Source: an uncultured Clostridia bacterium
Lineage (GTDB): Bacteria; Bacillota; Clostridia; TANB77; CAG-508
Assembly (NCBI GenBank): GCA_947589265.1
Contig: CANQAI010000001.1
Location: forward strand, 14,484-78,483
Length of the DNA stretch: 64,000 bases
Reading direction: 5' to 3'
Both the position numbers and the translations under genes were made by a program. Shown in pieces: positions 4,824 to 63,349 of the stretch. The notes under the pieces are model-generated. The model was not told where the DNA came from and did no database searches. It was given only the letters and a program-made list of their open reading frames with translations. The stretch's first letter is position 1; every line of letters starts with the position of its first letter.

Positions 4824-4852
4824 TTGACAAAAGTAAAAAAAAACGCTATAAT
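4824..4852 (+). promoter_or_regulatory. Sigma-A type promoter for rnj (TTGACA-17-TATAAT)
   Basis: TTGACA at 4824-4829, exact 17-nt spacer, TATAAT at 4847-4852. It lies about 270 nt upstream of the rnj ATG. Confidence 0.55.
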
Positions 4853-5123: not shown

Positions 5124-7034
5124 ATGTTAACAAATGAAAGGCATCAAAGTAATAGAAGAGAGAAAGATACTACTATTACAAACAAAAGAAGAAATGTTTA
5201 TGCAAGTTCAAACTTAGATCCTACACAAAATAATGGAGAAAAACTAAAGACTTCACAAAGCAGATTAGGTCAAAACAGAACTCAAAGAACAGAAACAAGA
5301 AGTACACACTCTAGAGCATTAAATGAGAGAAAATTAGAAAAAAAAGCTTTAGAAGAAAAAGACAAATTTGAATTTAAAAAAGAGAATTTAAAAATTATTC
5401 CTTTAGGAGGGCTAGAGGAAATAGGAAAGAACATAACAGTTTTTGAATATGGAAATGAAATAGTGCTTGTAGACTGTGGCTTAGAGTTCCCAGAAGACGA
5501 CATGCTAGGTGTAGACCTAGTAATACCAGACATAACCTACCTAGAAAGAAACAAGGAAAAAATAAAAGGTTTAGTAATCACACATGGACACGAAGACCAT
5601 ATTGGAGCAATACCATATATATTAAAACAAATAAATATTCCTATTTATGCAACTAAACTAACAGTAGCTTTAATAAAAAATAAATTAGAAGAACATAACT
5701 TAGAGAAAACCACAAAAATACACATTGTAGAACAAGGCAAAACTATTAATTTTGGAAAAATGAAAGTAGAATTTATACGTAGCAACCATAGTATTCCAGA
5801 CTCTGTAATGCTTGCTATTCATACACCAGTTGGAGTTGTACTTCATACAGGAGACTTTAAAATAGACTATACCCCAATTGATGATAAAGTAATAGACTTA
5901 GGAAGAATAGCAGAACTAGGTAACAAAGGAATTTTAGCATTACTTTCAGATAGTACAAATAGTGAAAGAAAAGGATATACAATGTCAGAAAGCTCTGTTG
6001 GAGAAGTATTTGACAAGTTATTTTTAAATAACACTAAAAGAATTGTTGTAGCAACATTTGCATCTAATGTTCACCGTGTACAACAAATTGTAAACTCATC
6101 TATAAAATACGGTAGAAAAATTGCTGTATGTGGTAGAAGTATGATGAACATGATAGAGGCTGCAATAGAACTAGGCTACATCAATGTACCAGCCAATACT
6201 TTCATTGACATAGATAATATAAACAACTATAGAGATGACCAATTAGTTATAATAACTACAGGAAGCCAGGGCGAGGCTATGTCAGCACTTACCAGAATGG
6301 CAAACGGAGAGCATAAAAAAGTAACTATTACACCAAATGATATGGTTATTATTTCAGCAACTCCAATACCAGGAAACGAAAAACTAGTGTCTAAGGTAAT
6401 AGATGAATTAATGAAAATAGGTGCAACTGTTATTTACAGTTCTTTAGAGGCTATTCACGTATCTGGTCACGCTTGTCAAGAAGAGCAAAAGTTAATATTA
6501 ACATTAGCTAAACCAAAATATTTTATGCCAGTTCACGGTGAATATAGGCAACTTATAGCACATGCTGAAACTGCTAAAAAAGTTGGAATAGAGCCTCAAA
6601 ACATATTTATAATGTCAAATGGTAGAACACTAGAATTAAATGAAAATGAAGCCAAAATTACTACTTCTGTACCAAATGGAAAAATATTAGTAGATGGTTT
6701 AGGCATAGGTGATGTTGGAAATATTGTTTTAAGAGATAGACAACATTTATCACAAGATGGATTAATTGTAATTGTAATGACAATGGATACATCAACAGGA
6801 GAAATAGTTTCTGGACCAGACGTAGTATCAAGAGGATTTGTTTATGTTAGAGAATCTGAAAACTTAATGGAAGAAGTAAAAAGAGTAGCAAGAGAAGAAG
6901 TTAAAAGATGTGAAGAAAGTCATATTCGCGATTGGGCAACTATTAAATCTAATGTAAAAGATACACTAAGAGATTATATTTTTGAAAGAACAAAACGTAA
7001 CCCAATGTTACTCCCAATTATTATGGAAGTTTAA
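5124..7034 (+). CDS. rnj: Ribonuclease J (beta-CASP metallo-beta-lactamase RNase) with an N-terminal extension of about 85 aa that is basic and low-complexity
   Basis: KIIPLGGLEEIGKN, HGHEDHIGA motif, beta-CASP and C-terminal domain. The only in-frame ATG upstream of the catalytic core is at 5124. Confidence 0.9.
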   Translation: MLTNERHQSNRREKDTTITNKRRNVYASSNLDPTQNNGEKLKTSQSRLGQNRTQRTETRSTHSRALNERKLEKKALEEKDKFEFKKENLKIIPLGGLEEIGKNITVFEYGNEIVLVDCGLEFPEDDMLGVDLVIPDITYLERNKEKIKGLVITHGHEDHIGAIPYILKQINIPIYATKLTVALIKNKLEEHNLEKTTKIHIVEQGKTINFGKMKVEFIRSNHSIPDSVMLAIHTPVGVVLHTGDFKIDYTPIDDKVIDLGRIAELGNKGILALLSDSTNSERKGYTMSESSVGEVFDKLFLNNTKRIVVATFASNVHRVQQIVNSSIKYGRKIAVCGRSMMNMIEAAIELGYINVPANTFIDIDNINNYRDDQLVIITTGSQGEAMSALTRMANGEHKKVTITPNDMVIISATPIPGNEKLVSKVIDELMKIGATVIYSSLEAIHVSGHACQEEQKLILTLAKPKYFMPVHGEYRQLIAHAETAKKVGIEPQNIFIMSNGRTLELNENEAKITTSVPNGKILVDGLGIGDVGNIVLRDRQHLSQDGLIVIVMTMDTSTGEIVSGPDVVSRGFVYVRESENLMEEVKRVAREEVKRCEESHIRDWATIKSNVKDTLRDYIFERTKRNPMLLPIIMEV

Positions 7035-7098: not shown

Positions 7099-8748
7099 AT
7101 GAATTATAAAGAACTAGCAGACCTAATTTTTCCAGATGCAAAAGAAATATCATATTATGAAGAAAAATATCCAGAAAGAAACTTACCAGAAGATGCAATT
7201 GTTACAAGATTTGCACCAAGCCCAACGGGATTTGTTCATGTTGGAGGATTAATGCAATGTGTTATAAATAGACAGCTTACAAATCAAACAGGTGGAGTAT
7301 TTTTGCTAAGAATAGAAGATACAGACCAAAAGCGTGAAATTGAGAATGGCGTAGCTCAAATTGTAAATGCAGTTAAAGATTTTGGCATAGAATTTGATGA
7401 AGGAATGATAAATGAAACTGAAGAAAAGGGAAAATATGGACCATATAAACAAAGTAATAGAGCTCCTATTTATCAAGCTTATGCTAAGCACTTAATAGAG
7501 CAAGGAAGAGCATATCCTTGTTTTGCAACAGCAGAAGAATTAGAAGAAATGAGAAAAAAGCAAGAAGCTGCTAAAATTAGAACAGGTTATTATGGAGTAT
7601 GGGCAACTTATCGTAATTTGCCAGTAGATGAAGCAGCAGAAAAAATAAAAGCAGGGGTCCCATATATTATTCGTTTTAAATCAATGGGAAGTGAAGAAAA
7701 GAAAATAAGACATCATGATGTTATAAAAGGGAATATAGATTTCCCAGAAAATGATCAAGATATAGTCATTATTAAAGCAGACGGACTTCCAACTTATCAC
7801 TTTGCACACGCAGTAGATGACCATTTAATGAGAGTAACACACGTAATTCGTTCAGATGAATGGGTTTCATCTATACCATTACATTTAGAGCTATTTCAAA
7901 CATTGGGATTTAAAACTCCTAAATATTGCCACTATGCTCCTATTTTAAAAGAAGAAGATGGCAAAAAACGTAAAATTAGTAAAAGAAAAGACCCAGAAGC
8001 AGCAGTTAGCTATTACCATGAAGAAGGTATTCCAGCACAAGCTGTTTGTGAATATTTAATGAATATAGGAAATTCTAATTTTGAAAGCTGGAGAAGAGCA
8101 AACCCTAATAGGCCAATGTCAGATTTTAAATTTGAAATTAATAAAATGAGTGTAAGTGGTGCAATATTTGACTTAGTTAAATTATTGGATGTTTCTAAAA
8201 ATGTTATTTCAAAATATACAAAAGAAGCAATGTACGAAGAGGTACTAGAATGGGCAAAAAGATATGATAGTGAACTTGAAAAACTATTAGAAAATAAAGA
8301 ATATTCTCTTAAAATTTTCGGAATAGAAAGAGGAAATGCTAAGCCTAGAAAAGATATATCAAAATGGTCTGATGTTAAAAATGCTATTATTTATATGTAT
8401 GATGAAGAATTTTTTAAACAAGACACAAATTTTGAATATGGCAAAATAAACGACAAAAATGAAATTAAAAAGATATTAAGCTTATATTTAGAAAAATATT
8501 TTGACATAAATGATGATAAGCAAACATGGTTTGATAAAATGAAAGACTTATCAGAAGAATTAGGATATGCAAGAGAAGTAAAAGAATATAAACAAAATCC
8601 TGAAAAATGGCCAGGACATGTTGGTGACATCAGCACAGTTTTAAGAGTAAGTCTAACAGGCAGACAAAACACCCCTGACCTTTACGAGATTATGCAAGTA
8701 TTAGGAAAAGAAAGCATCGAAAAAAGAATAGAAAGATTAATTAAATAA
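7099..8748 (+). CDS. gltX: Glutamate--tRNA ligase (class I). An alternative start is at 7087.
   Basis: HVGG HIGH-type motif in RFAPSPTGFVHVGG, KMSKS variant KISKRK, and a long C-terminal anticodon-binding region. Confidence 0.85.
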   Translation: MNYKELADLIFPDAKEISYYEEKYPERNLPEDAIVTRFAPSPTGFVHVGGLMQCVINRQLTNQTGGVFLLRIEDTDQKREIENGVAQIVNAVKDFGIEFDEGMINETEEKGKYGPYKQSNRAPIYQAYAKHLIEQGRAYPCFATAEELEEMRKKQEAAKIRTGYYGVWATYRNLPVDEAAEKIKAGVPYIIRFKSMGSEEKKIRHHDVIKGNIDFPENDQDIVIIKADGLPTYHFAHAVDDHLMRVTHVIRSDEWVSSIPLHLELFQTLGFKTPKYCHYAPILKEEDGKKRKISKRKDPEAAVSYYHEEGIPAQAVCEYLMNIGNSNFESWRRANPNRPMSDFKFEINKMSVSGAIFDLVKLLDVSKNVISKYTKEAMYEEVLEWAKRYDSELEKLLENKEYSLKIFGIERGNAKPRKDISKWSDVKNAIIYMYDEEFFKQDTNFEYGKINDKNEIKKILSLYLEKYFDINDDKQTWFDKMKDLSEELGYAREVKEYKQNPEKWPGHVGDISTVLRVSLTGRQNTPDLYEIMQVLGKESIEKRIERLIK

Positions 8749-8785
8749 ATTTCAAAAAAATATTTTATAGGAAAATAAAGAAAAT

Positions 8786-8986
8786 ATGGAATTTAATGTT
8801 GGAGATATTGTTAGAACCAAAAAAGAGCATCCTTGTGGTAGTAAACTATGGGAATTAACTAGAATAGGTGTAGATTTTAAATTAAAATGTTTAGGTTGTG
8901 GTCATATAGTTACAATGGAAAGACAAAAAGCCTTAAAGGCAATTACTAAAAATGTAACTAATGAAACTAACCAAAATGCTAATTAG
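8786..8986 (+). CDS. DUF951 family small protein (YyzM-like)
   Basis: 66 aa, NVGDIV..KEHPCGS..W...RIG.DFK.KCLGCG pattern with paired Cys motifs. Confidence 0.55.
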   Translation: MEFNVGDIVRTKKEHPCGSKLWELTRIGVDFKLKCLGCGHIVTMERQKALKAITKNVTNETNQNAN

Positions 8987-8996
8987 TAATAAAATA

Positions 8997-9024
8997 AAAG
9001 AGGTGGCCAGGTAGCCACCTCTTT
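8997..9024. terminator. Bidirectional intrinsic terminator
   Basis: Perfect 11-bp stem AAAGAGGTGGC/GCCACCTCTTT with a 6-nt loop. It is flanked by an A-run on one side and a T-run on the other, so it can terminate both the + strand DUF951 transcript and the - strand engB-serS transcript. Confidence 0.7.
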
Positions 9025-9062
9025 GCATTGCACTAAGAGGATATAAGTACCCTACTTAGGTG

Positions 9063-9299
9063 TTAGGATTCAAAGGGAAGTGGAATCGAACCGTAGCACT
9101 GTAGCAAAAATGCTCTTGCCATATTACGAGGAACATCGACAGAGTCTTCCTGAATGTAAACAGTTTCATGTTCCACCCTCGAAAGATCTCTGGATGCGAT
9201 CAGCTGGGTAGGATGCGCTGCACGGAACAGCTTGAAGGCATCCATTGCAGACTTGTGGTCAGCAAAATGAACGACTACATACTTCCGATTTTTAGACAT
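9063..9299 (-). CDS. Hypothetical 78-aa ORF inside an anomalously GC-rich island of about 250 bp. It could instead be a structured RNA.
   Basis: The ORF has a GGAGG RBS 9 nt upstream of its ATG. The region is about 48% GC against about 27% for its surroundings and contains several perfect 6-7 bp GC-rich hairpins. I recognise no homolog. Confidence 0.3.
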   Translation of the reverse strand: MSKNRKYVVVHFADHKSAMDAFKLFRAAHPTQLIASRDLSRVEHETVYIQEDSVDVPRNMARAFLLQCYGSIPLPFES

Positions 9300-9353
9300 A
9301 TATAATGCCTCCTAACAAAAATTCTCCACAGGGGAGTTATATTTATTATACAC

Positions 9354-9941
9354 CTATTTGAATATAAAATCAATAATGTTTTCCCAAACTTCTTCTGTAT
9401 ATATTTTTCTTTCTGAAGAAAAAGGCAAAAACTTTAAATCTTTTAGGGGATTTAAAGTTTTTTGCAAACTTTCTACATAGTCATCTACTTTAGTAATAGC
9501 AATTTTATCAGCCTTATTTGCAATTACTATACAAGGAAGATTTGTTTTAAAAATATAATCATACATCAGTTTATCATTTTCAGTAGGATCATGTCTAATA
9601 TCAATTATAAAAATAATAAGACATATATTTTTGCTAGTTTGTAAATATTGTTCAATAAAACTTCCTACTTTTTCTTGTTCTACCTTAGACATTTTACTAT
9701 ATCCATATCCAGGCAAGTCTACAAAGTAAAATTTATTGTCCATATTATAAAAATTAATTTGTCTTGTTTTTCCAGGTTCACTACTAGTTCTAGCTAAGCC
9801 TTTACGGTTTACCAAAGTATTAATAAAAGAAGATTTCCCAACATTAGATTTTCCAACAAGTACAACTTGAGGCAAATTGTCATTTGGATATTGTTTAGGG
9901 CTTACTGCTGAAATTTTAAATTCTGGATTTTTAATTATCAT
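9354..9941 (-). CDS. engB: Ribosome biogenesis GTP-binding protein YsxC/EngB
   Basis: G1 motif LVGKSNVGKSSFIN and DLPGYGY, about 195 aa. It sits downstream of serS. Confidence 0.85.
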   Translation of the reverse strand: MIIKNPEFKISAVSPKQYPNDNLPQVVLVGKSNVGKSSFINTLVNRKGLARTSSEPGKTRQINFYNMDNKFYFVDLPGYGYSKMSKVEQEKVGSFIEQYLQTSKNICLIIFIIDIRHDPTENDKLMYDYIFKTNLPCIVIANKADKIAITKVDDYVESLQKTLNPLKDLKFLPFSSERKIYTEEVWENIIDFIFK

Positions 9942-9963
9942 AAATTTTTCTCCAATTTAAAAA

Positions 9964-11250
9964 TTATTTTTTAGGCTTTAAAATTTTCGTACCACCCATA
10001 TATGGCCATAAAACTTCTGGAATAATAATACTTCCATCTGGTTGATAATGATTTTCTAAAAATGCAATTAACATACGAGGTGGAGCAACTACTGTATTAT
10101 TTAAAGTATGAGCATAATAGTTTCCTTTTTCACCCTTAATACGAATGCCAAGACGTCTGGCCTGTGCGTCTGTTAAATTAGAACAGCTACCAACTTCAAA
10201 ATATTTTTGTTGTCTAGGGCTCCATGCTTCAACATCACAGCTTTTGGCCTTTAAATCTGCTAAATCTCCACTGCAACATTCCAAAGTACGAACTGGAATT
10301 TCCATGCTTCTGAATAATTCTACTGTGTAAGACCATAATTTATCATACCATTTGTAGCTATCTTCTGGCTCACAAACAACTATCATTTCTTGTTTTTCAA
10401 ATTGGTGAATACGGTAAACACCACGCTCTTCAATACCATGTGCACCTTTTTCTTTTCTAAAACATGGAGAATAAGATGTCATAGTATATGGTAAACTTTC
10501 TTTTTGTAAAATTTGGTCTTTAAATTTACCAATCATAGAATGCTCACTAGTACCAATTAAATATAAATCTTCACCCTCTATTTTGTACATCATAGCATCC
10601 ATTTCTTCAAAACTCATAACACCTGTTACTACATTACTACGAATCATAAAAGGAGGAACACAATAAGTAAATCCTTTATTAATCATAAAATCTCTAGCAT
10701 AAGAAATAACAGCAGAATGAAGTCTTGCAATATCTCCAATTAAATAATAAAAGCCATTGCCAGCAACTCTACGAGCACTATCTAAATCAATACCTTCTAA
10801 TGCTTCCATAATATCTGTATGATAAGGAATTTCATAAGGAGGAACATAAGGCTCTCCAAACTTTTGAATTTCAACATTTTCACTATCATCTTTTCCAATT
10901 GGAACAGACTCATGAATAATGTTTGGAATTTTCATCATTCTTTCCTCAATTTGCTTGCTATATTCTTCTTCTAGTTTTTCATTTTCTAATAATTTTTCAT
11001 TAATTTCAGCAACTTGATTTTTAATGCCTTCTGCTTCTTCTTTCTTTCCCTGTTTCATTAAATTGCCAATTTCACTACTTAATGAATTTCTTTTGCTTCT
11101 TAATTCATCACCATTTAACTTTGCTTCACGATTTTTTGAATCTAACTCAATTACCTCATCTACTAAATGAAGTTTGTGGTCTTGAAATTTTTTCTTAATG
11201 TTTTCCTTAACTGCATCTGGATTTTCTCTTAAAAATTTAATATCTATCAT
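9964..11250 (-). CDS. serS: Serine--tRNA ligase
   Basis: N-terminal coiled-coil arm (MIDIKFLRENP), class II motifs, 428 aa. Confidence 0.9.
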   Translation of the reverse strand: MIDIKFLRENPDAVKENIKKKFQDHKLHLVDEVIELDSKNREAKLNGDELRSKRNSLSSEIGNLMKQGKKEEAEGIKNQVAEINEKLLENEKLEEEYSKQIEERMMKIPNIIHESVPIGKDDSENVEIQKFGEPYVPPYEIPYHTDIMEALEGIDLDSARRVAGNGFYYLIGDIARLHSAVISYARDFMINKGFTYCVPPFMIRSNVVTGVMSFEEMDAMMYKIEGEDLYLIGTSEHSMIGKFKDQILQKESLPYTMTSYSPCFRKEKGAHGIEERGVYRIHQFEKQEMIVVCEPEDSYKWYDKLWSYTVELFRSMEIPVRTLECCSGDLADLKAKSCDVEAWSPRQQKYFEVGSCSNLTDAQARRLGIRIKGEKGNYYAHTLNNTVVAPPRMLIAFLENHYQPDGSIIIPEVLWPYMGGTKILKPKK

Positions 11251-43840: not shown

Positions 43841-44513
43841 TATGAACGATTTCGATAAAATGGTAACAATACTTACCCCAAATGGTAAAATTGGGTGCAG
43901 CGCAAAAGGGGCTAGAAAACCAAAAAGCCTCTTAATGGCAGGCACTCAATTTTTGTGTTTTGGCGAATATTTAATTTATGAAGGGGCAAGTACATACCAT
44001 ATTAATTCTTGTGACACCATAGAACTTTTTTACCCAATTAGAACAGATTTAAACAAACTAAAATATGCTTCTCATGTATCTAAAATTATAAATGATGTCA
44101 CTTACGAAAATCAAAATACTTATAAAATTTTACAACTCTATTTAAACACATTATATATGATTTCACAAACAGATAGAAACCTAGACTTTATACTTTCAGT
44201 ATTTAAAATAAGACTTTTAACACTTTTAGGCTTTTCACCTGAAATTAAGTATTGCACAATTTGTAAAACAAATGAAAATTTAAGCTATTTTAGCATAAAA
44301 GATAATGGATTTAAATGCTTAAGCTGTGGTAAGGTAGACAAAAGCGCAATTCAAATTTCAAATTCTACAATAACAGCAATTAGATATATAATGATGTCAG
44401 ATGCAAAAAAAATATTCTCTTTTCAAATTTCAGATGAAAATTTGAAAGAACTAAACTTAGTAAGTAAGTTATATTTTAATGAAAAATTAGAAAAAGAATA
44501 CAAGCTTGAATAG
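43797..44513 (+). CDS. recO: DNA repair protein RecO
   Basis: N-terminal OB fold (GIIISESNMNDFDKMVTILT) and a C-terminal Cys4 zinc motif (CTICK...CLSCG). Confidence 0.8.
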   Translation: MGLIKTKGIIISESNMNDFDKMVTILTPNGKIGCSAKGARKPKSLLMAGTQFLCFGEYLIYEGASTYHINSCDTIELFYPIRTDLNKLKYASHVSKIINDVTYENQNTYKILQLYLNTLYMISQTDRNLDFILSVFKIRLLTLLGFSPEIKYCTICKTNENLSYFSIKDNGFKCLSCGKVDKSAIQISNSTITAIRYIMMSDAKKIFSFQISDENLKELNLVSKLYFNEKLEKEYKLE

Positions 44514-44626
44514 GGATTATGCTTGAAATATAAGCTTTTTGAAAGTTTGACACAAAATGAAGAATATGATATAATCTAGTAGTTAAATGCTATTATTTGG
44601 CGACTATAAACGCAAAGGAGAGAACT

Positions 44627-48854: not shown

Positions 48855-50046
48855 ATGCAAGAAATTATCATAAAACAGGATAACGATTTTAATAAAATAG
48901 TTGCAGTAGTTGAAAACGGAAAGCTTGTAGAAAAGTATGAAGAAAAAGAAAATCAAGAAAGACTAGAAGGCAATATATATTTAGGAAAAGTAGAAAATGT
49001 ATTAATTCGGAATGCAGGCAGCATTTGTAAATATAGGAGCAGATAAAAATACATTTATCCATGTAAAAGATATTATTCCTAAAATTAGTAATGAAACCGG
49101 AAATAAAAATGAACAATTAAGCAAATATGACATAAAAAACTACATACACAACGGAATGCCAATTTTAGTTCAAGTTAAAAGAGATGCCACATCAAAAAAA
49201 GGTGCAAGAGTATCAAGCCACATTACTATGCCAGGAAGATTTATAGTATTAATGCCTGAAACAGAATTTATTACTATTTCCAAAAAAATAGAAAAAGAAC
49301 AAGAAAAAAATAGACTAATAAATATTGTAAAACAAAATTTGCCAAAAGGCTATGGAGTAATTGTAAGAACATCAGCACAAGGAAAATCAGAAGAACTTAT
49401 AACTGAAGACATTAAAAGAGTTTTAAACCAATACGAAGCAATCTTACAAGAATTTAATCACCTAAAAAATAATGAAAATTGTAATTCAACATTACTATAC
49501 AAAAACGATGGAATTGTTGGTAAAATATTAACAGATTTAGTAGACCAAGACCTAATGAGAATTACTACAAATAATATAAAAGTACATGAATATGTTAAAA
49601 AGTTTCTAGACGAAACAGGACTTAAAGAAAAAGTAAAACTAGAACTTAAAAATGATGATGTGCTTAAAATATATGATATTGAAGAACAAATAGAAAAAGC
49701 AAACAATCGTAAAATTTGGCTAAAATGTGGTGGCTTTATTACCATAGATAAAACAGAAGCTTTAACTGCAATCGATGTAAACTCTGGGAAATATGTAGGA
49801 ACAAAAGACCTAGAGCAAACAGTATATACAGTAAATAAAGAAGCAAGCATTGAAATTGCAAAACAACTAAGACTTCGCGATATTGGTGGAATTATTATAA
49901 TCGATTATATAGACATGGAAAAAGAAGAAACCAAACAAAAAATATTACAAACTTTAGAGCAAGCATTAAAAAAAGATCGTTCAAAAACACAAATCGTTGG
50001 ATTTACACCACTTGACCTTTTGGAAATGACTAGAAAACACATGTAA
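48855..50046 (+). pseudogene. rng: RNase G/E-family ribonuclease (rng/cafA-like) interrupted by a frameshift near 49005-49010
   Basis: Frame 1 (48855-49046) encodes the S1-domain N-terminus ending ..EGNIYLGKVENVLI. Frame 2 continues with GMQAAFVNIGADKN.., the canonical RNase G S1 motif. One extra nucleotide separates them. Confidence 0.65.
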
Positions 50047-56881: not shown

Positions 56882-56910
56882 TTGACATACAAACAAAGAG
56901 AATATATAAT
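56882..56910 (+). promoter_or_regulatory. Sigma-A type promoter (TTGACA-17-TATAAT) for the CNNM/CorC gene
   Basis: TTGACA at 56882-56887, 17-nt spacer, TATAAT at 56905-56910, 40 nt upstream of the ATG at 56950. Confidence 0.5.
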
Positions 56911-62691: not shown

Positions 62692-63349
62692 ATGCAAATA
62701 TGTGAAAAGCAGAAAGTAGGAATAAAATTGAAAACAATTAACGAAAATATAACAGAGCAAATTATAGAAAAAAAGTCCAAATTTATTTGTGACTTAATTT
62801 ACGTAAGCTCTGAAAAAGAAGTGGAAGAAAACCTACAAAAAATTCGTAAAAAATATTATGATGCTAAACATCATTGCTTTGCATATAGGTTGCAAAATAA
62901 AAATGGAATAATAGAGAAATCAAGTGATGATGGTGAGCCATCTGGCACAGCAGGTGCACCTATGCTAAATTTACTTACAAAAAATGAACTTGTAAATTGT
63001 TTAGCAATTGTAACAAGATATTTTGGAGGAATACTTTTAGGAACGGGAGGACTAGTTAGAGCATACTCAGAAGTTACAAAAAACGCGATAGAAAGTGCAA
63101 ATATTGTAGAAGAATATTTACGGAGTAGAAATAAAGGTAACCCTATCATATCAAGATTTTGAAAATTTTAAACATTATTGTAACTTAAATCAAATTAATA
63201 TTATAAAAACAGAATTTAATGAATTTATATGTTGTAATATAGAATTAACTTTTAACGAAAAAGACCAATTATTAACTCAAATAGATAAAAAACAACTTAA
63301 TATACAAAATATAGAACTTTTAATGGAAAAGAATATAAAAAAATTATGA
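62692..63349 (+). pseudogene. yigZ: YigZ/IMPACT-family protein (UPF0029 + DUF1949) split by a frameshift between about 63110 and 63160
   Basis: Frame 1 (62692-63162) encodes the UPF0029 domain (KHHCFAYRL...DDGEPSGTAGAPML...VTRYFGGILLGTGGLVRAY). Another frame stays open from 63110 to the stop at 63347 and encodes ..LSYQDFENFKHYCNLNQINIIKTEFNEFICCNIEL.., matching the C-terminal YigZ domain. Confidence 0.6.

Follow-up and report, generated by a model that had tools for sequence, protein, structure and literature searches.

What gives rise to a short GC-rich island in a genome that is otherwise markedly AT-rich, and what keeps it there? The question is raised by a 64,000-nucleotide stretch of an uncultured Clostridia bacterium (contig CANQAI010000001.1, positions 14,484 to 78,483 of the forward strand; in its whole length, the window), in which some 250 bp just downstream of engB stand out sharply in composition. 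An earlier note on this DNA had observed that such outliers are usually structured RNAs or recently acquired DNA. The island is instead the coding sequence of a 78-amino acid gene (9299–9063, minus strand). To that extent it is ordinary, being just a coding sequence; what is unusual is a conserved anomaly at its synonymous sites, together with a pattern in which one CGG codon is kept per gene. Our favoured explanation, which we regard as fairly probable, is that this is a small, independently transcribed protein gene whose GC excess is due to selection on mRNA and decoding, that is, a stabilised and rare-codon-gated message.

The compositional outlier is real, survives windowed computation and is the strongest in the 64 kb. 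The GC content of the window is 0.278 (mean of 250-bp windows 0.278, standard deviation 0.042), and the 250-bp window starting at 9001 reaches the maximum of 0.476, the runner-up peak being 0.396. Log-odds segmentation places the maximal-scoring GC segment, by far the best in the window, at 9000–9263. The GC content is 0.444 over 9040–9300 and 0.451 over the 78-amino acid open reading frame (ORF), which occupies 9063..9299 on the minus strand with its TAA stop codon at 9065–9063. Its GC content at third codon positions (GC3) is 0.43 versus 0.156 ± 0.024 in 39 long ORFs of the window (maximum 0.213), and its sense strand has an A content of 0.24 versus 0.43 in other genes. The good ribosome binding site ascribed to this ORF is also present, as an AGGAGG Shine-Dalgarno (SD) sequence (9308..9313, minus strand) lying 8 nt 5' of the ATG and approximately 25 nt from the predicted transcription start.

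The sole match in a search with the single protein sequence was an identical protein from a metagenome, on a contig of 649 bp. For comparison we assembled 80 engB loci (L numbers below) from species-representative genomes with EngB identities of 74–93%, the hosts all being uncultured Clostridia of rabbit, human, chicken and other guts and including Clostridium sp. CAG:273. By tblastn, a dozen loci have a homologue of the 78-amino acid product directly downstream of engB (E 3e-28 to 4e-3, 30–61% identity), and a hidden Markov model (HMM) raised the number of orthologues to 20 loci. The view that the product lacks recognisable homology holds as far as Pfam, NCBIfam and PDB are concerned, but not for the clade, in which there are syntenic orthologues with overall amino acid identities of 25–61%. 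Nucleotide similarity, as seen by blastn, is patchy (68–80% identity) and strongest in the leader. All of the orthologues start with ATG, the frame is open in at least 20 syntenic ones, and mean pairwise identities at codon positions 1, 2 and 3 of the codon alignment are 0.49, 0.57 and 0.34. The ratio of nonsynonymous to synonymous divergence (dN/dS) is 0.10–0.41, with dS mostly above 1.3 or not computable. The open frame, variable third positions, dN/dS below 1 and ribosome binding site are those of a protein-coding gene.

The family gene is found in the same slot, between engB and a DUF951 gene, in more than 25 lineages. Distances among the small proteins follow those among the EngB proteins (Spearman 0.40, p=1.6e-8), though the small protein evolves much faster, the closest pair sharing 54% identity versus 92% for EngB, and between the same pairs of genomes the small gene has diverged more at its synonymous sites than engB has. 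The idea of a structured RNA fails on the pattern of conservation, the protein being conserved (tblastn E values down to 3e-28) and the nucleotides much less so.

Nor does the island correspond to a catalogued RNA. Rfam cmscan at gathering thresholds gave no matches in the whole 64 kb; at E<=10 the interval 8700–9500 yielded sub-threshold chance matches, those within 9040–9300 consisting only of the tails of terminator-like matches. ARAGORN found no tRNA or tmRNA in the window. The perfect hairpins quoted in the earlier note do exist as inverted repeats on the minus strand, GGATGC/GCATCC with nested GCTG/CAGC at 9211–9216 and 9238–9243, and GGAACAT/ATGTTCC at 9130–9136 and 9168–9174. Both hairpins (9211–9243 and 9130–9174) lie within the coding sequence and appear in its minimum-free-energy fold; they are, however, species-specific rather than conserved among orthologues. 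With neither a match to a known RNA nor a conserved structure in the coding region, the structured RNA is not borne out.

Recent acquisition fares no better. The same slot is occupied across the clade by genes that are equally GC-rich and whose synonymous sites are near saturation, and there is no likeness to phage, plasmid or defence genes. We found no integrase, tRNA or flanking repeats at the small gene; tblastn against 50,697 phage and 72,556 plasmid records returned nothing, PHROG and PADLOC gave no matches, and nothing emerged from a viral contig scan with the single protein. The composition is atypical, as in a recent genomic island, but the closest relatives share both the gene and its slot. 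Because of the clade-wide synteny and the lack of phage, plasmid or mobility signals, recent horizontal transfer of the small gene is excluded.

The anomalous composition is a property of the family. At the 20 loci found with the HMM the small genes have a GC content of 0.38–0.56 and a GC3 of 0.32–0.65, in genomes of 0.27–0.31 GC whose engB genes have a GC3 of 0.11–0.20; 20 of 22 family members have a GC3 of 0.32–0.65, and the other types of small gene found in the slot show the same GC-rich, A-poor composition. Averaged over orthologues, GC climbs at the start codon from approximately 0.2 in the promoter and leader and drops after the stop codon and terminator. The shift is one-sided: the sense strand of the family has an A content of 0.26 versus 0.43 ± 0.03 in other genes and a T content of 0.29 versus 0.285. 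Adenine is depleted at all three codon positions (0.19 versus 0.50 at the third), and C and G are roughly doubled to tripled. The GC excess is a depletion of sense-strand adenine, which fills the gene with the rarest codons of the genome. Thus CAG, CCC, CTG and CGG have usages of 0.69, 0.27, 0.14 and 0.24 in the family versus 0.09, 0.01, 0.00 and 0.00 in other genes, while TTA and ATA fall from 0.59 to 0.14 and from 0.48 to 0.12. Selection for translationally optimal codons was considered and rejected, G-ending and otherwise unused codons being enriched as much as C-ending ones. Avoidance of MazF-type motifs (ACA, UACAU) was not seen in the small-gene family.

The coding sequences of the family also fold more stably than shuffled sequences of matched composition. 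Their folding z-scores average -1.9 (n=22, of which 20 are negative) versus +0.05 ± 0.99 for 240-nt engB segments from the same genomes (n=16; Mann-Whitney p=9e-5). Similar values were obtained in the 14 members also tested with shuffles of synonymous codons only, and absolute folding energies are approximately twice those of the engB segments. Particular base pairs are not maintained. RNAalifold gave -3.7 kcal/mol for eight sequences of the codon alignment and -1.3 kcal/mol for 17, with no covariation; nine full transcripts yielded nothing beyond the hairpin of the 5' leader and a short pairing between the SD region and the 3' end, both described below, with no conserved pairs in the coding region. 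The two hairpins of the window's coding sequence feed this family-wide excess of folding energy and are not a conserved structure. A base-balanced, A-poor message would be the expected outcome were overall pairing favoured and not particular pairs. Since the composition has been kept despite randomised synonymous sites, selection probably acts on the message and not the protein, and it is selection on the mRNA that we favour as maintaining the composition. The earlier hunch that something acts here at the nucleotide level was justified.

The window's small gene contains a single CGG, at Arg5 (9285..9287, minus strand), and this is the rarest sense codon of the genome. None occurs among 17,222 codons in the long ORFs of the window, and the long ORFs of relatives have 32 in 123,919 codons (0.26 per 1000), where CGG is likewise the rarest sense codon. 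Housekeeping genes avoid it, as none of the 561 arginine codons of 84 engB genes is CGG; among the DUF951 genes, used as a control, two of 52 carry one. Only three ATG-initiated ORFs of at least 60 amino acids in the window have an in-frame CGG, the 78-amino acid gene included. The two others, at 48855–49046 (plus strand, codon 52 of 63 amino acids) and 62692–63162 (plus strand, codon 144 of 156 amino acids), may show that the codon is decoded in ordinary genes.

All 12 arginines in the Arg5 column of the alignment are encoded by CGG; the conserved Arg41 uses five codons, and at the columns of conserved Ala, Val and Leu the number of codons in use is four or five. Members with Lys or Asn in the Arg5 column have their CGG elsewhere. 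None of the first 42 slot genes, belonging to four types, lacks CGG, and in 34 of them the codon occurs exactly once. Even with CGG used as often as it is in the family, one would expect 10.8 genes without the codon and 16 with exactly one; the probability that all 42 carry at least one is 2.5e-6, and in 100,000 simulations the observed 34 single-CGG genes were never reached. An out-of-sample test on seven further members found five with exactly one CGG, two of these being genes with only two arginines, which brings the totals to 47 of 49 slot genes with at least one and 39 with exactly one. There is no nucleotide motif around the CGG codon, the contexts being different. The slot genes retain CGG beyond chance.

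CGG aligns with Arg or Lys in relatives, and it therefore probably still encodes arginine in this clade. Other low-GC Clostridia hardly use the codon, leave it unassigned or have reassigned it (Codetta screen, PMC8629427; KACI preprint, bioRxiv 10.64898/2026.04.02.715157).

The small gene has expression signals of its own. A predicted sigma-70-type promoter at 9345..9373 on the minus strand (-35 TTGATT, 9373–9368; 17-nt spacer; -10 TATAAT, 9350–9345) overlaps the last engB codons. It agrees with the consensus at 10 of 12 positions and is the best promoter-like site in 8600–10000; the predicted transcription start is at approximately 9338. The arrangement TTGAC/TT-17-TATAAT is found in the same place at 20 of 20 orthologous loci and ahead of the slot's other small genes. 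In the 64 kb it is one of five near-consensus promoters, the other four (TTGAC/TT-N16-18-TATAAT) lying at 4824–4852, 44547–44575 and 56882–56910 on the plus strand and at 44114–44085 on the minus strand. Elsewhere in the window no ORF pairs an SD sequence with a clearly raised GC3, so the anomaly is not general to strongly promoted genes.

The predicted transcript begins with a 5'-terminal stem-loop (AACUCCCCUGUGGAGAAUU, 9320..9338, minus strand) whose core stem is CUCC (9336–9333) paired with GGAG (9327–9324). A hairpin is present at this place in 19 of 19 short-leader orthologues, with stem sequences that differ (CUCC/GGAG, UUCCA/UGGAA, GCUCUU/AAGAGC, AUGCUU/AAGCAU, UCCC/GGGA and others), and in all of them it begins 8–12 nt past the -10 hexamer, the start site being predicted. 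In an alignment of 22 leaders, which was fitted to a covariance model and is biased towards the structure for that reason, 85% of the cells are paired and four of four pairs show changes on both sides. Neither the observed pairing nor the covariation was matched in any of 500 shuffles, and slid controls gave at most 60% paired cells. A strong, properly spaced SD sequence (AAGGAGG, GGAGG or GGGGG) is kept in every orthologue.

At the other end an intrinsic terminator (8987..9024, minus strand) consists of a 12-bp stem at 9024–8997 followed by UAUUUUAUUA, and is located 39 nt past the stop codon, where it abuts the convergent DUF951 gene. Equivalent terminators stand 3' of the stop codon in nearly all orthologues. 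The terminator had been described as bidirectional; a strong hairpin terminator does exist at 8997–9024, but in the terminator scan it scores as one on the minus strand alone. At loci L082 and L086 a terminator belonging to engB precedes the small-gene promoter. Because of the conserved promoter, the covarying 5' hairpin, the terminator and these engB terminators, we regard the small gene as a separate transcription unit, with read-through from engB possible in this window. The proposal that the island is the 3' tail of a serS-engB operon is too simple, given a promoter for the small gene in every orthologue and an engB terminator in some relatives.

A 7-nt inverted repeat (9062–9068 and 9310–9316) brackets the coding sequence. 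In the minimum-free-energy fold UCCUAAC, which lies over the stop codon (9062..9068, minus strand), pairs with GUUAGGA of the SD region (9316–9310). RNAduplex gives -19.3 kcal/mol for this interaction (p=0.037 versus shuffles), and it is held in five to seven of the nine closest transcripts. We regard the pairing of UCCUAAC with GUUAGGA in the window as possible but tentative. A conserved duplex of the 5' and 3' untranslated regions (UTRs) like that of hbs was rejected for the family as a whole, being supported in the window and its nearest relatives only (family median p 0.28).

Other loci have, in place of the short 5' hairpin, a longer leader of a second type (ATGTTCAATAGAAC...GTTCTAATTGG). 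It lies approximately 70 nt 5' of the ATG, reads ATGTTCAATAGAAC ... GTTCTAATTGGRCAAATAA and has a hairpin stem of approximately 13 bp; we found it at L014, L015, L018, L023, L024, L027, L047, L053, L064, L065, L068, L071, L073, L092, L095 and L096. That this leader is common to different protein types suggests either leader/ORF shuffling or a common origin.

In the window the small gene lies downstream of serS (9964–11250) and engB (9354–9941), both on the minus strand, and converges with the DUF951 gene (8786–8986) and gltX on the plus strand. The family is confined almost wholly to the engB/DUF951 gap in one clade of uncultured gut Clostridia with small, AT-rich genomes; distant members (P0055, P0054, P0015, P0018, P0021, P0013 and P0031) likewise show the gene order serS-engB-small gene-DUF951-gltX. 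In many relatives the slot is empty and DUF951 starts 20–100 bp past engB, examples being L022, L035, L042, L046, L049, L059 and L062. The clade can therefore do without the small gene, which is non-essential and is present in some of its members but not in others.

Small ORFs of 68–96 amino acids that the family HMM does not recognise, and which represent three further sequence types, occur in the same gap approximately 100–500 bp past the engB stop codon (L018, L024, L027, L028, L030, L037, L047, L053, L058, L064, L065, L068, L069, L071, L073, L075 and L076). These have GC contents of 0.37–0.54, are A-poor, display the same layout of promoter, leader, SD sequence and terminator, and usually carry one CGG. 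A relationship among the four protein types is suggested by hhalign, which pairs the window's type with type B at a probability of 63% and C with D at 71%, though the window's type with C or D at below 6%. In two genomes small genes occur in tandem (L082:4001–4548 and L086:930–1553), one of each pair belonging to the window's family and the other to a type with a Lys-rich N-terminus; these pairs hint at an old tandem duplication followed by differential loss.

Other arrangements were also seen. In L010 (4597–6878) the family gene lies 2.3 kb from engB, with GC-richer DNA lacking a clean ORF and minus-strand ORFs in between; L019 and L021 have a minus-strand ORF of 170–240 amino acids in the gap downstream of engB, so that the slot accepts other inserts. 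Elsewhere in the window an RNase J homologue (5124–7034, plus strand) possesses an N-terminal extension of approximately 90 residues ahead of its metallo-beta-lactamase domain; this extension is basic and of low complexity, with an abundance of Arg, Thr, Ser, Asn and Gln.

A profile search of 5.8 billion proteins recovered 20 members of the family, all of them hypothetical proteins without Pfam domains, and an exhaustive HMMER search of 1.84 billion cluster representatives gave 45 matches at E<=1e-3. About 40 of the latter are family members of 71–105 amino acids (counted as clusters at 50% identity), none of them annotated. The remainder comprise a low-complexity repeat protein, P0030, and eukaryotic proteins with multiple RNA recognition motifs (RRMs) which score through summed partial matches. 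P0030 (397 amino acids; six copies of a Pro/Thr/Gln-rich unit of approximately 60 residues) matches the family profile at E 5e-18, apparently as an artefact of low complexity and not as a homologue. The small protein itself has no match in Pfam, NCBIfam, PADLOC or PHROGs, and neither a PDB profile search nor Foldseek against PDB and the BFVD viral models revealed anything significant.

AlphaFold2, given a 17-sequence alignment, predicts a beta-alpha-beta-beta-alpha(-beta) protein with a predicted local distance difference test score of 88 and a predicted template modelling (TM) score of 0.76. Its top Foldseek neighbours in PDB are DCoH, Pcc1, the ACT domains of phosphoglycerate dehydrogenase and NikR-C (E >= 0.3, TM <= 0.48). 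The best ACT/ferredoxin-like neighbours have E 0.3 and TM 0.44–0.48, and the predicted topology agrees with them; on this model the predicted fold class is ferredoxin-like alpha/beta. An RRM had been suggested by an R-K-Y-V-V-V-x-F ... A-x-x-A-F pattern and weak matches, and was judged unsupported: the best PDB profile match, to nucleolin, has a whole-sequence E of 0.036 and covers beta3-alpha2 only, and no RRM is present among the top 50 Foldseek matches. There is a weak resemblance of the N-terminal beta-alpha unit to RRM beta3-alpha2. Neither ligand-binding nor RNP motifs could be established in the small protein. Besides a G-A-x-P motif at the C-terminus, it is mostly hydrophobic positions of the core that are conserved, a pattern which suggests that the protein binds something or is structural, and is not an enzyme.

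How, then, might selection on the message operate? We infer high expression from a stabilised, strongly folded mRNA whose translation is paced or gated by rare codons, chiefly the single CGG. The promoter in the 3' end of engB would start a transcript of approximately 340 nt made up of the stem-loop, the SD sequence, the 78-amino acid ORF and the strong intrinsic terminator. The 5' hairpin and strong SD sequence would shield the 5' end in the same way as in the aprE, hbs and cryIIIA mRNAs of Bacillus, and the A-poor, base-balanced body would have roughly double the folding stability of an ordinary mRNA from these genomes. The single CGG, often located in the first 15 codons, would tie translation to a scarce tRNA-Arg(CCG), and might act as a pause or gate in the manner of TTA/bldA control or of a stalled-ribosome stabiliser.

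Several observations weigh against this explanation. GC3 varies widely among orthologues, as an ancient import would predict, and members with low values (L085, 0.135, which is at host level; L082, 0.21; L094, 0.25) show that the protein itself does not need a GC-rich composition. The case for a structured mRNA is made by folding-energy statistics, the coding region being without conserved structure, and highly structured ORFs can reduce translation instead of aiding it. The sequences compared are phylogenetically related, which makes the p-values optimistic. Two of the seven later-fetched test members (L094 and L096) have no CGG at all, and CGG trinucleotides are common in all frames of these genes, 52 being in frame versus 61 in the other two frames together. 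The 5' hairpin of the window is weak, having 4 bp and -4.0 kcal/mol, and 12% of shuffles fold equally well; moreover the promoter, the start site and the distance of the hairpin from the 5' end are predictions.

A more specific version of the favoured explanation is doubtful, though we think it worth stating. In it the whole engB/DUF951 gap would be a codon-gated cassette, comprising a strong promoter, a stabilised leader and a small, fast-evolving ORF written in the rarest codons, with almost always just one CGG, that reports the state of tRNA-Arg(CCG). The availability of this tRNA, its charging or its m1G37 modification would be read out in the amount of protein made, or in whether the mRNA survives thanks to a ribosome that pauses close to the 5' end. 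Such a cassette would be the mirror image of bldA/TTA control, acting on a codon which sister Clostridia have lost or reassigned, and could keep CGG readable in this clade.

Of the explanations that do without selection on the message, the one that survives best, albeit as an unlikely one, is an ancient import from a much GC-richer donor, received by an ancestor of the clade in the engB/DUF951 gap. The gene would still be ameliorating towards the host GC3 of 0.15, its rare codons, CGG included, would be leftovers, and present GC3 values of 0.13–0.65 would represent different stages of decay. Besides the spread of GC3 already mentioned, the proteins are about twofold rich in Arg and Ala, as expected from a GC-rich past, the slot is polymorphic for presence and absence and holds several protein types, and the base composition (A 26, C 22, G 23, T 29) is like that of an ordinary gene from a 45% GC genome. 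Yet identity at four-fold sites is 0.11–0.67 (mostly 0.2–0.5, from 9–21 sites per pair) versus approximately 0.27 for random sequence, and distant branches hold a GC3 two to four times that of their hosts (L012, 0.63; L009, 0.65; L020, 0.56; L086, 0.48). One would also have to explain why all four protein types share the anomaly, and why the promoter, leader and terminator are host-like and AT-rich, with the step in GC falling exactly at the start and stop codons. Decay leaves unaccounted for the invariance of CGG at one column, the excess of single-CGG genes (34 of 42 versus 16) and the absence of any gene without CGG among those 42, and no donor-like relative was found among the 1.84 billion representative proteins.

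Less likely again is an element that functions mainly, or additionally, as RNA: a regulatory RNA of approximately 340 nt, such as a base-pairing small RNA or a protein sponge, in which the ORF is secondary or co-opted. Such an element would be consistent with the discrete predicted transcript and its strong promoter and terminator, with A close to U and G close to C, with excess folding energy in 20 of 22 members, with selection on synonymous sites, and with the SD/3'-end pairing that is possible in close relatives. The ORF, however, takes up approximately 70% of the transcript, is under purifying selection along its whole length and has a confident predicted fold. Covariation is limited to the 5' hairpin, the RNAalifold consensus amounts to only -1.3 to -6.3 kcal/mol over more than 230 nt, and neither an Rfam match nor a conserved single-stranded seed region was seen.

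We consider it very unlikely that a local neutral process is responsible, the gap being a hotspot of recombination or gene replacement subject to GC-biased gene conversion or a transcription-linked mutation bias. The variable content of the slot (empty, one gene, two in tandem or other inserts), the leader types common to different protein types, which suggest recombination, and the greater synonymous divergence of the small gene than of engB in the same genome pairs are all compatible with such a process. But the GC excess is bounded by the coding sequence, the leader and downstream spacer being AT-rich, and the DUF951 gene, tens of bases away, is compositionally normal. The shift is also strand-asymmetric, with A depleted and T unchanged, unlike what gene conversion predicts, and the regularity of the in-frame CGG is unexplained. 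A structured non-coding RNA, which the earlier note had named as a usual source of such outliers, here with the ORF being fortuitous, has in its favour the GC-rich island in an AT-rich genome, the good local hairpins and the fold of 8990–9345 on the minus strand (z = -5.1, terminator included). It is scarcely credible given a protein conserved above its nucleotides, coding periodicity, a conserved SD sequence, hairpins that are not conserved, a coding sequence that by itself has a z of approximately -2, and no match to Rfam, tRNA or tmRNA.

Several things follow from these results. A GC island in an AT-rich genome need not mean an RNA gene or foreign DNA, and a false lead for annotation is removed. 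An unannotated family of small proteins is defined, whose fold is predicted with confidence and whose place in the genome is fixed. It adds to the rare cases in which synonymous composition lies far from genomic equilibrium across a clade, and in which the rarest codon is kept once per gene. Should codon gating be true, this would be a natural rare-codon control in Firmicutes, tied to the ongoing loss or reassignment of CGG in low-GC Clostridia; should slow amelioration be true instead, the slot would offer a calibrated series for the decay of imported genes.

It remains to compare the small gene with known systems. Its protein shares the predicted beta-alpha-beta-beta-alpha-beta topology of ACT, DCoH, Pcc1, HMA and RRM domains, with no significant match to any of them (Foldseek E >= 0.3, TM <= 0.48; PDB profile E = 0.036). 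At the level of the transcript there is a likeness to SR1/SR1P and RNAIII/hld, in that a predicted independent transcript of approximately 300 nt with its own promoter and terminator contains a small ORF and bears signs of RNA-level selection. It differs from these in that the ORF makes up most of the transcript and encodes what is predicted to be a folded 78-amino acid domain, and in having no conserved structure or seed.

A 5'-terminal stem-loop followed by a strong SD sequence is the classical mRNA-stabilising arrangement of Bacillus (PMC3997798, PMC5737220). The aprE 5' stem-loop, STAB-SD and ermC stall stabilisers have been reviewed (PMC3997798), and the hbs mRNA of B. subtilis combines a strong SD sequence with 5'/3'-UTR pairing (PMC5737220). 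Like the aprE, cryIIIA (STAB-SD), hbs and ermC mRNAs, the small gene has a predicted stem-loop near its 5' end and then a near-perfect SD sequence, and its ORF is short with a strong terminator at the end; of the hallmarks of 5'-stabilised mRNAs, the one it displays is a strong SD sequence near the predicted 5' end. A pairing of the SD region with the 3' end like that of hbs is possible, limited to the nearest relatives and not family-wide. Unlike in the stabilised Bacillus mRNAs, the window's hairpin has only 4 bp. The known stabilised mRNAs, in turn, are not described as compositional outliers or as obligatory carriers of rare codons.

For that side of the small gene the counterparts are the bldA/TTA control of Streptomyces, in which gene expression is controlled through a rare codon, and the minor-codon modulator idea based on AGA/AGG near E. 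coli start codons. As with bldA/TTA, the rarest codon of the slot genes is absent from housekeeping genes and is kept, usually once, in dispensable genes, and its position is not tied to one protein residue. The differences are that CGG is a GC-rich codon in an AT-rich genome, the mirror image of TTA, that a single gene slot is concerned and not a regulon, that the limiting tRNA is here a postulated one, and that two of the 49 genes lack CGG. The small gene's hosts resemble the low-GC Clostridia in which CGG is nearly unused, unassigned or reassigned (PMC8629427; 10.64898/2026.04.02.715157), as AT pressure has driven the codon down to approximately 0.3 per 1000 in them; unlike in those Clostridia, the novelty here is the retention of CGG in one gene family and not a changed meaning of the codon. 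By analogy, then, the small gene would appear to work most like the stabilised small-gene mRNAs of Bacillus, combined with a rare-codon control of the bldA/TTA type.

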